Notes: generated from the letters alone by a model not told the origin. A DNA stretch of 64,000 nucleotides from Bdellovibrionales bacterium (GCA_044378055.1 JBILXY010000002.1:27122-91121); one strand, 5' to 3'. Counted from the stretch's first letter, positions 31,046-50,639 are shown. Translations and numbers: made by a program.

Positions 31046-32845
31046 CTAACCACCATCAACATTTTTTCTATCTACTTCGGTAAGTTTAATTGTAACAGGC
31101 GTTCCTTGAAAATTAAACTGCTTACGAACTACATTTTCCAAAAACCTTACATAAGACCAATGCACTGTAGTTTTATCTTTAATTAAAAGTTCAAAAGTTG
31201 GTGGTTTAGATTTTGAATAAACCAAGTCGTAAATTACCGCTTTTTTCTTATTGGCCACTTTATTTGGTGGTTTTTTCTTCATTAAGAAGTTAAATAACTT
31301 TCTAACATCGGCTTTATCAATTTGCTTTTCACGGTTGGCGATAGATTCATCTATTTTATTCCATATTTGCCACAAATTTGTTCCTTCTTTAGCCGAAACC
31401 CAAACGAAATCGTCTAGTTTTAAGAACACAAATTTATGTAGGAAATCACGGATGAATTTCTTCTTCTGCTCTTCATCAATTAAGTCGGCTTTGTTGGCTA
31501 TTACCACAATACCCTTTTTGGCCTCTCTGCAAATTCCAGCCACAACTTGATCTTGATGGCTTACCGGCAAGGATGCATCTACAATTAAACAAATTACATC
31601 GGCTTGGTAGGCAGCTTCTACAGTTCTAAAAGTAGCAAAAGTTTCAGCCCCAGTGGTTCTTTGTCCTGGCTTTCTTATTCCGGTGGAATCTAGTAAAATA
31701 TATTCCTTTTCAATCCATTCGTATTTTGGCTTTGTGGTTTCGACTTCTACTTTATTTTGCTTCGAACTCTTTTTTCCACTGGCGATTACTTCCTCTGGTA
31801 ATTCTACTACATCATCATTTTCATCTTCCAACTCTTCCAACAATTCTTCAGAAACATTATCAATTTCAGTAGTTTCATCATTATCGAGTAAGTCATCTTC
31901 CAAGTCTTCCAAGTCTAATTCTGATTTATCGAGCAACTCTTCGTCATCTAAATCCAAATTTTCCACAGGTTCCACAATTTCAGTCTTCACCATTCTTTTC
32001 AAAACCATGTCATTTACACTTAAAGTAGTTCCAGGAATATCAGTAACAATTTGAACTTCTTGCCCTATCATAGCATTGAACAAAGAACTTTTTCCAACAT
32101 TCGGTTTTCCAATCAACAAAATTTTAGGGCTTCTTTTTTCCTGCTCTTCAAATTCCAAGTTATCTGGATCAATCGGGGTTTCTTCCATCACAACTTCATA
32201 CAAACCAGGACCATTAGCATCATTTTCACGGGTTACATAATAAGATCCGTCGTTTAGCTTTTTAACAATTCCAGCCTTAGCCCTTTTCTTCTTTTTTGTA
32301 TCAATAATTCTCATCGGCTCTTCAGGAGATTTTTCAAAACCCATAGCCAAACACTTTTCTACCAAAGCATCAAGCAAATCGTTTACGCCGTAACTGTTGG
32401 TTGAACTTACATTAACAAAAGCAAAACCACCCAGCCTTGCGTAATCGGAAATACTTTTTTCCAGGTTTGGATCATCAACCTTGTTAATTACTATCATGAA
32501 GGGTTTTCCGGCCTTCCAAATTTTAGATAAAACTTTCTGGGAAATATTTTCAGGATTCTGTCTTCTATCAATAACCCAAACCAGAATATCGGCCATGGCA
32601 ATTGCTCCGAAAGAGCGAACTTGAATTTCCTTCTGAATTTTATCTTCAGGATCTGGAACCAAACCACCAGTATCAACAAATTGCATGTACATGTTGTCCC
32701 ACTCGGTTTCCGACCAGTTTAAATCTCGGGTTGTGTGTTCTTCTTTGGCAGTAATAGCTTTTTTAGTACCGCAAATTCTATTAAGCAGGGTACTTTTACC
32801 AGAATTAGGCAAACCAATTAAAGCAATGGTAGGTATTCGTTTCAT
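31046..32845 (-). CDS. der: Ribosome-biogenesis GTPase Der/EngA with a large acidic insertion in the second G domain.
   Basis: GD1 has GLPNSGKSTLLN, GD2 has GKPNVGKSSLFN, and the KH-like C-terminus is present. An Asp/Glu-rich insert of roughly 90 aa lies between the GD2 G2 motif (PGTT) and G3 motif (DSTG). Confidence 0.85.
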   Translation of the reverse strand: MKRIPTIALIGLPNSGKSTLLNRICGTKKAITAKEEHTTRDLNWSETEWDNMYMQFVDTGGLVPDPEDKIQKEIQVRSFGAIAMADILVWVIDRRQNPENISQKVLSKIWKAGKPFMIVINKVDDPNLEKSISDYARLGGFAFVNVSSTNSYGVNDLLDALVEKCLAMGFEKSPEEPMRIIDTKKKKRAKAGIVKKLNDGSYYVTRENDANGPGLYEVVMEETPIDPDNLEFEEQEKRSPKILLIGKPNVGKSSLFNAMIGQEVQIVTDIPGTTLSVNDMVLKRMVKTEIVEPVENLDLDDEELLDKSELDLEDLEDDLLDNDETTEIDNVSEELLEELEDENDDVVELPEEVIASGKKSSKQNKVEVETTKPKYEWIEKEYILLDSTGIRKPGQRTTGAETFATFRTVEAAYQADVICLIVDASLPVSHQDQVVAGICREAKKGIVVIANKADLIDEEQKKKFIRDFLHKFVFLKLDDFVWVSAKEGTNLWQIWNKIDESIANREKQIDKADVRKLFNFLMKKKPPNKVANKKKAVIYDLVYSKSKPPTFELLIKDKTTVHWSYVRFLENVVRKQFNFQGTPVTIKLTEVDRKNVDGG

Positions 32846-33091: not shown

Positions 33092-33538
33092 ATGGATATA
33101 GATTTATCAGATACCCTGATTGCATTACTATTTTTTTGTGATGTTCGCGATGAAAAACAAGTTATGGGCATTAACATGATAGATTTAATGTCCGATATTA
33201 CAGTGCCTCCAACAACCGTATATCACAAATCTAGCAACTTAAGGCTAGTAATTTCAATAGAAAAAGCCTGCAAAGTTGATGGTTTAATTAACTTAGCAGA
33301 GGAAAGTTATCTGGAAGTTTATCAAACACCTAGTGATTTAAAGCTAGATGTTTTAGTTACAATGATTAATTCATTGTTTCTTTACTCAAAAATGGGTAGC
33401 AATATATTGGACATAACTGATCCTTATGTTTTTAGAACTATCTTCGACATTTTCGACATGTTCTGTGAATATATGGATTCGTTAGAGTATAATGAGTTTG
33501 AACATCACAAACTAAAGTGGGCTGAAGTATGCTCATAA
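33092..33538 (+). CDS. Orphan hypothetical protein (148 aa) occupying the position where the lepA G domain would be expected.
   Basis: ORF with its own terminator. No similarity to a GTPase domain is visible. Confidence 0.4.
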   Translation: MDIDLSDTLIALLFFCDVRDEKQVMGINMIDLMSDITVPPTTVYHKSSNLRLVISIEKACKVDGLINLAEESYLEVYQTPSDLKLDVLVTMINSLFLYSKMGSNILDITDPYVFRTIFDIFDMFCEYMDSLEYNEFEHHKLKWAEVCS

Positions 33539-33547
33539 AAAATAATC

Positions 33548-33576
33548 GCCTAGCTAACCCTAGGCCTTTTTATTTG
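33548..33576 (+). terminator. Intrinsic terminator.
   Basis: GCCTAG-CTAACC-CTAGGC followed by CTTTTTATTTG. Confidence 0.65.
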
Positions 33577-33613
33577 CCTAAAATTAATTAAGATTGCAAT
33601 ATTTAAATTAACT

Positions 33614-34834
33614 ATGCTGAAGGCTTTAATTTTTGATTCTTTTTTCGATAAACATCGTGGGGTTATTGCTTTCATTCGTTTATTTAATGGGGAAATAAAG
33701 GCAGGTGACAGTATCTATTTCTTGCAATCTAGCACTAAAATTACAGTTTTAGAAGTTGGGGTTTTCAAACCAGAAATGCAACCAATTTCAAGTTTAAGCA
33801 GTGGTGAGGTTGGTTATTTGGTTACAGGTTTAAAAGAATTAGAAAAGGTTAAAGTTGGCGATACAGTCAGCAGCAAAGATGACCAGAGCTTGGCACTTCA
33901 CGGCTATAAAGAAGTAACTCCAAAAGTTTTTTCCAGTCTTTTCCCAACCAACGCCGATGATTATCCTAAACTTCGCGATGCGGTGGCTAAATTAAAGCTT
34001 AGTGATGCTTCCTTAATGTACGAAACAGAGAATATTCCTGCCCTTGGTTTTGGTTTTAGATGTGGTTTTTTAGGCCTTTTACATATGGATATTGTGCAAG
34101 AAAGATTAAGCAGGGAATTCGATTTAGATTTGGTTTTAACTACCCCTTCTGTAGAATACGAAATTGAGGAAAATAATGGCAGTAAATACACAATTCATAC
34201 CCCAGCTTTGCTTCCTGACCCCAGTAAAATTCGCCACATTTCAGAACCTTGGATTAAGATGGAAATTTTAACTCCTGATATTTACATTGGAAAAATTATC
34301 GAATTAATAACCAACAAACGCGGTACTTATACTTCAATGTCAGCTCTAGCAGCCGATCAAGTTCAAATAACTGCAGATTTACCGCTTGCCGAAATGATTG
34401 TAGATTTTTACGACGAATTAAAGTCTTGCACCAAGGGTTTTGCCACTATGTCTTACGATTTGGTTGGCTTTCAGCAAAGCGACTTGGTTAAAATTGATAT
34501 TCTGGTAAACAAGAAAATTGTTGATCCTTTATCAGTAATGTGCCACAGGGCTAATGCTGAAACCAAAGGAAGAGAAATTTGTGAAAAGCTAAAAGAACTA
34601 ATTCCAAGGCAGCAATTCGATATTTCAATTCAAGCTTCAATCGGCGCAAGAGTTATTGCAAGGGAAACAATCAAACCTTTTAGAAAAGATGTAACTGCCA
34701 AACTTTACGGCGGCGACCCTACCCGAAGAATGAAGCTGCTGGATAAACAAAAGGAAGGGAAGAAGAAAATGAAAATGGTTGGAAATGTAGAAATTCCCCA
34801 ATCAGCCTTCCTAAATGTGTTAAAGAAAAGTTAA
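33614..34834 (+). CDS. lepA: Elongation factor 4 (LepA) domains II through the C-terminal domain only. The N-terminal GTPase domain is absent, so this is a truncated gene or possible pseudogene.
   Basis: The product is collinear with E. coli LepA from about residue 190 (PLQALIIDSWFD, versus MLKALIFDSFFD here) to the C-terminus. Shared stretches include ALGFGFRCGFLGLLHM, LIPRQQFDI.IQA.IG and KQKEGKKKMK. No G1-G4 motifs appear upstream in any frame. Confidence 0.8.
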   Translation: MLKALIFDSFFDKHRGVIAFIRLFNGEIKAGDSIYFLQSSTKITVLEVGVFKPEMQPISSLSSGEVGYLVTGLKELEKVKVGDTVSSKDDQSLALHGYKEVTPKVFSSLFPTNADDYPKLRDAVAKLKLSDASLMYETENIPALGFGFRCGFLGLLHMDIVQERLSREFDLDLVLTTPSVEYEIEENNGSKYTIHTPALLPDPSKIRHISEPWIKMEILTPDIYIGKIIELITNKRGTYTSMSALAADQVQITADLPLAEMIVDFYDELKSCTKGFATMSYDLVGFQQSDLVKIDILVNKKIVDPLSVMCHRANAETKGREICEKLKELIPRQQFDISIQASIGARVIARETIKPFRKDVTAKLYGGDPTRRMKLLDKQKEGKKKMKMVGNVEIPQSAFLNVLKKS

Positions 34835-49619: not shown

Positions 49620-50639
49620 ATGAGCAATAATTATGTGGATTACCGATCTTTTCTTATGGCCAATGTGGAGACTATGCTTCAAGCAGCCTCTACTTTAAGG
49701 CAGTCGGCTGGAATTGAAAGTGAAGATTTATTTGGAGCTGAAAGTGATGATCAAAATACCGGCAAAACAGATATTCAATGGATACAAAAAGCAGAAAATT
49801 TATCTCCATTTCAAGTTTTGCTGAAAGAAAAAGACAGTTTAGGATTATTCGTATCGGGAAATCCTTTGGATGAATACCAACATATTCTCGAATGGGTTCA
49901 GGAAACAGCCGCAAGAGACGATATACATCTGATTTTAATTACTAAAATTCGCAAAATATTTACCAAAGCCGGACAAATGATGTTCGCCCTGCAAATTACT
50001 ATGTACAATGCCGAAGTTGAAGGTGTTATCTTCCCTAAAAAAGCCATGGATCTTTCACCAAGATTAGCCGAAGGGGAACTTTTCTGGGTTCGTGGAAAAA
50101 TAAGCGTTCCAAAAAAACGAGACACCAAACAAAAACCTTTACCATCGACTCCGATTGCTGATGCAAATGAAGATTTAGATACCTCTAGCGAGGGGAATGT
50201 TGAGCAGCCTATTTCTGAAACTGTTGAGGAAGTTAAGGAATACGATGAATTACCAAAACTATTAATCGACAATTTAGTTCCATTCCAAGAAGGCGCTCTG
50301 GCCGTTTTAGCCGATGAAGACATAAGAATTTCAATTAATCGCGAGAAACTTTTTAAATCTGTAAACTGGGAAAAGCTTAAAGTAGATCCAAATTCTTTCC
50401 ATGAAAATTTCGGAGAAAGTAACAATAAAAGAGTGCCTGAAGATAAATCTGGAAAACCCAAGTTGATTAAATTAACCAAAGATGTCGGGGCAAGTGCTTT
50501 AATGGAGGTAAAACAAAATTTGAAAAAAACCCCAGAAACTGGAACTATTGAAGTTGAAGTTTGGGTTGAAAACTTGGGTGAGTTGAAAAAGGTAAAAGGC
50601 CAATTCTGGCTTCCTGAATCTATCGCCAAAAATTATTAG
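49620..50639 (+). CDS. dnaE: Stand-alone C-terminal fragment of DNA polymerase III alpha (OB-fold plus C-terminal tail). The PHP and polymerase-core regions are absent.
   Basis: YRSFLMANVETMLQAAS...DLFG...KEKDSLGLFVSGNPLDEY...IFTKAGQMMFALQITMYNAEVEGVIFPK...LFWVRGKIS is collinear with the last ~260 residues of E. coli DnaE (RAQLMASLDDAL...ETLGLYLTGHPINQY...). The upstream gene is an unrelated ABC ATPase. Confidence 0.7.
   Translation: MSNNYVDYRSFLMANVETMLQAASTLRQSAGIESEDLFGAESDDQNTGKTDIQWIQKAENLSPFQVLLKEKDSLGLFVSGNPLDEYQHILEWVQETAARDDIHLILITKIRKIFTKAGQMMFALQITMYNAEVEGVIFPKKAMDLSPRLAEGELFWVRGKISVPKKRDTKQKPLPSTPIADANEDLDTSSEGNVEQPISETVEEVKEYDELPKLLIDNLVPFQEGALAVLADEDIRISINREKLFKSVNWEKLKVDPNSFHENFGESNNKRVPEDKSGKPKLIKLTKDVGASALMEVKQNLKKTPETGTIEVEVWVENLGELKKVKGQFWLPESIAKNY

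Follow-up and report, generated by a model that had tools for sequence, protein, structure and literature searches.

The translational GTPase EF4, the product of lepA, is described as a one-chain protein (TIGR01393; PDB 3CB4, 3DEG, 2YWE, 4W2E and 5IMQ). Split genes with working products are described from other systems. [quoted passage not shown] 2011, PMC3045599). The reduced, symbiont-type genomes of Nanoarchaeum equitans and other Nanoarchaeota contain conserved genes cut at domain boundaries, the halves of which are scattered (PMC3491384, PMC3655853). EF4 itself has been altered in the laboratory by deletions of its C-terminal domain (CTD) or other elements (PMC4339808). Our literature search found no description of a split or fissioned lepA/EF4, or of gene fission in Patescibacteria/CPR that covers lepA.

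Here, we analyze a window of 64,000 nucleotides (GCA_044378055.1 JBILXY010000002.1:27122-91121), in which lepA is present without its GTPase (G) domain. Positions in the window are counted from its first nucleotide. The original prediction, made from this sequence alone, offered three explanations for the locus: a recent deletion or replacement that left an intact pseudogene, a stand-alone EF4 body, or an assembly chimera. We conclude that the locus is almost certainly one part of a conserved, selectively maintained gene fission, in which the G domain is encoded in trans.

The lepA body gene and its neighborhood

The lepA body gene (33614..34834, + strand) encodes a 406-aa protein composed of EF4 domains II, III, and V, and the LepA-specific CTD. 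The frame is uninterrupted, and its first residues, MLKALIFDS, fall at the first strand of domain II. The product matches positions 190-594 of the lepA equivalog profile TIGR01393 with 570.8 bits, and thus exceeds the whole-protein cut-off of 533.9 bits without a G domain. The Pfam domains GTP_EFTU_D2 (PF03144), EFG_C (PF00679), and LepA_C (PF06421; 4.9e-49) are present. EF4 chains from the PDB align to the product with E-values of about 1e-129, E. coli EF4 (3cb4) over residues 191-592 and 2ywe over residues 193-598. The profile, Pfam, and 3cb4 alignments agree with the earlier view that the frame is unbroken and collinear with LepA/EF4 from domain II to the C-terminus. The G domain is absent beside the body gene, as had also been claimed: a GTP_EFTU search found no such domain in the body ORF, and its only match near this ORF in the window was der.

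The divergent neighbor der/engA (31046..32845, − strand) encodes a double GTPase with a KH-like domain, 599 aa in length. A long insert of low complexity and highly acidic character, with many D, E, and L residues (approximately residues 290-370), is found in its second GTPase domain, C-terminal to the P-loop of that domain.

An orphan hypothetical gene of 148 aa (33092..33538, + strand) shares its frame with the body ORF (522 nt apart). It ends in an intrinsic-terminator-like element (33548..33575, + strand) that consists of a hairpin at 33548-33565, with a six-nucleotide loop between GCCTAG and CTAGGC, and a T-run. Both the orphan and its terminator had been predicted; the open frame was confirmed and has no match among Pfam, NCBIfam, and PHROG families, and our scan recovered the hairpin and the T-run. 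A search of 5.8 billion proteins yielded two homologs of the orphan, with identities of 88% and 65% and lengths of 148 and 146 aa. Both are flanked by der and a 406-aa lepA body gene; some strains have two additional genes in this interval. By BLAST, the orphan is absent from the lepA-body locus of a genome from the same genus. The AlphaFold2 model of the orphan protein has a pLDDT of 62 and contains an N-terminal β-α-β-β-α-β unit with a ferredoxin-like look; a comparison with the PDB gave no significant match. The possibility that the orphan is a hidden, very divergent G domain, which would have overturned the original prediction, was rejected because the protein lacks a P-loop and a family match, occurs in close relatives only, and has a ferredoxin-like model, albeit of low confidence. 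The orphan and the terminator are real but incidental genus-level neighbors and not part of EF4.

The T-run of the orphan terminator abuts the −35 box of a promoter-like site of the body gene (33574..33602, + strand). The site is composed of the −35 box TTGCCT (33574-33579), a 17-nt spacer, and the extended −10 box TGcAATAT (33595-33602). The two boxes (TTGCCT and CAATAT) are weak, and the site was missed by a consensus promoter scan because the −10 box matches only three of the six consensus positions. Transcription from this site would start approximately 4-5 nt before the ATG of the body gene and give a near-leaderless mRNA. There is no Shine-Dalgarno sequence at the body gene, presumably because a promoter this near to the ATG leaves the mRNA almost or entirely leaderless.

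Body genes of relatives carry the motif TTGAC 35-40 nt 5' of the start codon in 14 of 21 cases, or 17 of 21 if TTGCC is counted, compared with a chance expectation of 1.5% per gene, for 21 genomes that are kin; TTGCCT in the window occupies the homologous position. Throughout the genome that contains the window (G000), the motif TTGAC[AC] has a sharp peak 35-40 nt 5' of the ATG of long ORFs, at about 130 genes, and control motifs are flat. The peak suggests that leaderless or near-leaderless mRNAs are common in the lineage. The body gene is probably transcribed as a unit of its own. A promoter adjoining an in-frame ATG may, in such a genome, be enough for a working new gene start.

The 464 long frames of G000 end in TAA (298), TAG (156), or TGA (10). 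Recoding of UGA as a source of false stop codons was rejected: RF2 (prfB) is present, the genes for EF-G and IF2, der, and lepA contain no in-frame TGA, and TGA serves as a rare stop.

The G-domain gene and the pieces of lepA across the class

We searched the contigs of G000, a 34-contig MAG of 1.0 Mb with an estimated completeness of 87%, using the profiles PF00009 and TIGR01393. The search for a separate G-domain ORF, which had been proposed as a check, was decisive. An intact EF4 G-domain gene of 214 aa is located outside the window, on another contig (G000:C12:34785-35429, − strand; L004 1483..2127). Its product matches positions 1-185 of TIGR01393 with 286 bits and residues 2-186 of Aquifex LepA. 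The protein ends in ...IVERIPSPKTIE, three residues past ...RIPSPK (RIPSPKTIE and the stop codon), and the body ORF starts with MLKALIFDSFFD. One-piece relatives read ...KRIPAPSGEEEAPLRALIFDS across the junction, which places the cut in the short linker between domain I (G) and domain II. Combined, the two pieces correspond to residues 2-186 and 193-598 of Aquifex LepA, and are short of only about six residues of the linker. All parts of EF4 are thus present, but as two chains, and motifs G1-G5 are not in the same polypeptide as the body.

The five G motifs are intact in all 26 G pieces recovered from the class, and read AH[IV]DHGKS, RGITI, DTPGH, NKxD, and S[AG]K. The β2-β3 hairpin of the LepA G domain, which spans the interval from G2 to G3, is 17-46 aa long across the phylum, and 46 aa long in G000. 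Its expansion was rejected as a compensation for the cut, since the range of 17-46 aa is found in split and intact lineages alike.

The class was sampled by 27 Patescibacteria genomes from 27 species; it comprises a single order with two families and 19 genera. lepA is in pieces, with the same cut between the G domain and domain II (the G/II cut), in 27 of the 27 genomes, and both halves were recovered in 22. Incomplete sets of pieces were found in five genomes that are 68-84% complete: G013 is without the G piece, G003 and G004 are without the body, the body of G024 is a contig-end fragment, and that of G005 begins at about position 207. Co-retention of the halves is therefore seen in 22 of the 27 genomes, not in every one. 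The G genes encode approximately 185-215 aa and the body genes approximately 406 aa, and each half has its own start codon and its own stop codon. The C-termini of the G pieces consist of ...RIP(x)PK followed by 0-7 residues. All 18 complete body genes examined from family f1 begin with M/V-L/T-K/Q/R-A-L/M-IFDS. The body of the single family f2 genome starts five residues earlier and retains slightly more of the linker (MSETKPLTALIFDS).

The halves are never adjacent to each other. They are 216 kb apart and on opposite strands in G001, a single-contig genome from the same genus as G000, and 75 kb apart in G008; elsewhere they are on separate contigs. G001 contains no one-piece lepA. Clustering of the neighboring ORFs at 53 loci revealed no gene neighborhood that links the halves, and the shared neighbors are scattered. 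The order der, orphan, 406-aa lepA also occurs on independent JGI and ENA contigs.

Four genomes of the class have three lepA genes, because the hairpin that connects domains III and V is cut as well (loci L080/L094/L090 in G007, L078/L093/L089 in G021, L076/L091 in G010, and L081/L092/L088 in G012). At this second cut, about 35 aa have been added to the C-terminus of the middle piece and about 80 aa to the N-terminus of the last piece. These additions are possible candidates for docking sequences. The 80-aa extension is rich in Leu and Glu. In G010, the gene for the last piece precedes that for the middle piece and has the same orientation.

Within genera, the G piece has a dN/dS of 0.04-0.07 and the body one of about 0.05 (0.051 between G000 and G001), with dS saturated. 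This estimate was another of the checks proposed earlier, and the values of about 0.05 in both halves indicate strong purifying selection. The LepA tree unites the 22 split proteins from the class in one clade with a support of 100, on branches that do not exceed those of one-piece relatives in length. As judged from the sequences, the fission of lepA has a single origin within the class. The common cut, the dN/dS values, the intact G motifs, and the tree together rule out a recent lesion or a decaying gene.

We compared the class with 190 other genomes of the phylum that are at least 85% complete. One-piece lepA is present in about 170 of these, and three genomes of one family have no lepA. 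The sample contained 12 two-piece candidates, ten of which were inspected (G056 and G109 were left out). The inspected candidates were mostly insertions within one open frame, with one case of contig-end fragments and one N-gap; the only true split was that of G144. This genome belongs to another class. Its lepA is cut at the same G/II linker (L175 and L176, on G144:C11 and C2) and is placed among one-piece proteins on the tree. The split is found in nine genomes of the order to which G144 belongs, from three genera of one family; others among the nine are G217, G218, G222, and G224-G227. Intact lepA is present in three other genera of the same family and in all eight genomes of the sister family. 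The placement of G144 and its intact nearest relatives indicate that the G/II cut arose at least twice. The body gene of G144 probably starts with GTG, and no clear promoter was found at this start.

A two-chain EF4 and its alternatives

We conclude that lepA was almost certainly divided in the common ancestor of the class by a cut in the short stretch that links the GTPase domain to domain II. The G-domain gene and the body gene have been kept since then as two unlinked genes. The body gene would be transcribed from its own promoter next to the ATG, an arrangement that illustrates a way for a new start inside a gene to become functional. We propose that the two chains reassemble via the native interface of domains I and II, either in solution or on the ribosome. 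No docking tails longer than seven residues are present on the G/II pieces, so that assembly would have to rest on the native interface alone. The outcome would be a two-chain EF4 that behaves like the one-chain factor, a ribosome-dependent GTPase. The purifying selection on both halves gives indirect support to such an activity and to a part played in translation or in 30S biogenesis. We consider it likely that the two chains work together as one EF4.

The local view of the window, taken alone, fits a decaying gene or an artefact, that is, a fragment left by a recent deletion or insertion, or a chimeric bin or assembly. The orphan and its terminator occupy the place of the G domain, and the genome is an incomplete MAG in many contigs. 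A recent deletion that left an intact pseudogene is contradicted by the cut common to 27 of 27 species and by dN/dS of about 0.05 in both halves. The proposed assembly chimera is contradicted by the same arrangement in 27 independent assemblies, including the single-contig genome of the same genus, which has the same two genes and no one-piece lepA, and by the reproduction of the locus on the JGI and ENA contigs. The pseudogene and artefact readings are refuted, and we give them practically no weight. The remaining proposal, a stand-alone EF4 body, was correct in that the body is a separate polypeptide; the G domain, however, was not lost, and is encoded in trans by the 214-aa gene. Split inteins rejoin the separately encoded halves of essential proteins, as in cyanobacterial DnaE. 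The cut in lepA is clean, and a split intein, trans-splicing of RNA, or translational bypassing could likewise make a single polypeptide or a single mRNA of the pieces. However, there is no room for intein halves, as the G piece ends 0-7 aa past its domain and the body starts at domain II. No intron-like or intein sequence is apparent beside the pieces, which in G001 lie on opposite strands at a distance of 216 kb, each with its own start and stop codons. Rejoining is thus extremely improbable.

The halves might also have diverged in function. The body would then act on the ribosome independently of GTP, and another role, or that of a regulator, would fall to the free G domain. Since E. coli can do without lepA, each half might in principle have been retained for a function of its own. 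The two genes are unlinked, each with its own promoter, and docking extensions are absent at the G/II cut. EF-G without its G domain reportedly retains partial activity in vitro, so that a body without a G domain is not necessarily inert. Nevertheless, both halves are as near to the EF4 profile as one-piece proteins (1.4-1.7 bits per position) and retain all G motifs and CTD motifs. The single-contig genome has both halves, 22 of the 27 class genomes have both, and the tree shows no acceleration. Moreover, the same cut was made twice, and both halves were retained each time. We therefore regard functional divergence as unlikely. It is similarly doubtful that the obligate partnership of the free G domain and the body has been lost, with the G module binding transiently or conditionally and the body working without a covalent GTPase. 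If this were true, EF4 activity would be set by the supply of subunits, and the class would have a natural "GTPase-in-trans" translation factor, with three-subunit versions in some genera.

With the halves cooperating as one EF4, as we favor, a whole bacterial class has the parts of this factor as separate proteins, three of them in some genera. The class-wide split and the independent cut at the same site indicate that the covalent link between the G domain and the body is dispensable. The linker between domains I and II looks like a natural fault line of the protein. The split EF4 provides a ready-made system for studying the coupling between GTP hydrolysis and the body in a translational GTPase. 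TIGR01393 is a standard phylogenomic marker. Annotation pipelines will call the split lepA partial or a pseudogene, or lose about 190 alignment columns.

Other split genes and comparison with known systems

Two further genes of G000 are split. The N-terminal part of bipA/typA (L178 1480..2709 = G000:C33:21016-22245; 409 aa) is cut after domain III, and the C-terminal part (L178 3225..3884 = G000:C33:22761-23420; 219 aa) follows behind an unrelated ORF of 124 aa on the opposite strand (L178 2763..3137). Relatives have the same cut in bipA, with the halves 0.7 kb apart in G001, 6.3 kb apart in G019, and on different contigs in G002. The gene is intact in G018 and G025. These states look like successive stages that lead from insertion to dispersal, and may serve as a model for the history of lepA. 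The main part of dnaE (G000:C31:24746-27547) matches positions 7-887 of TIGR00594. Its tail, an OB fold and the terminal segment, is encoded by a separate ORF in the window (49620-50639, with the match at approximately 49641-50033) that covers positions 884-1022. Given the split lepA, bipA, and dnaE and the widespread leaderless-type promoters, the lineage may be a bacterial counterpart of Nanoarchaeum. The combination of split genes with leaderless-type promoters suggests how gene fission becomes viable.

The lepA products of the class resemble one-chain EF4 in that all domains are present and normally conserved. They differ in that unlinked genes supply the G domain and the body as two separate chains; in four relatives, three genes are involved. 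The engineered EF4 deletions are similar in that modules of a translational GTPase are separated or removed at domain borders. However, these are laboratory constructs short of a module, whereas here both modules have been kept by natural selection. EF-G without a G domain is likewise a laboratory construct that lacks one module, and the lepA of the class keeps both modules as genes.

Aeh1 NrdA and EF4 share the division of the gene for an important enzyme into parts that encode separate polypeptides, which form a working enzyme in NrdA and are predicted to do so in EF4. In contrast to Aeh1 NrdA, the G/II halves of lepA are dispersed, have no mobile endonuclease between them, and carry no tails longer than seven residues. 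An endonuclease insertion of the Aeh1 type is not seen at the G/II cut: the halves are 75-216 kb apart or on other contigs, and the ORF upstream of the body has no nuclease match. The three-piece lepA, with new tails at the cut, and the split bipA, with a foreign ORF between its halves, bear a closer likeness to the Aeh1 system. The new tails of the three-piece lepA are reminiscent of the interaction tails on the pieces of NrdA.

The Nanoarchaeota are similar in their reduced symbiont-type genomes, in the cutting of conserved genes at domain boundaries, and in the scattering of the halves. They belong, however, to another domain of life, and the genes concerned are others; to our knowledge, lepA is absent from archaea. 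The lepA cut described here is moreover class-wide and independently recurrent. In comparison with these systems, the lepA of the class belongs to an ordinary protein family, and what is unusual is its form, two genes maintained by selection.
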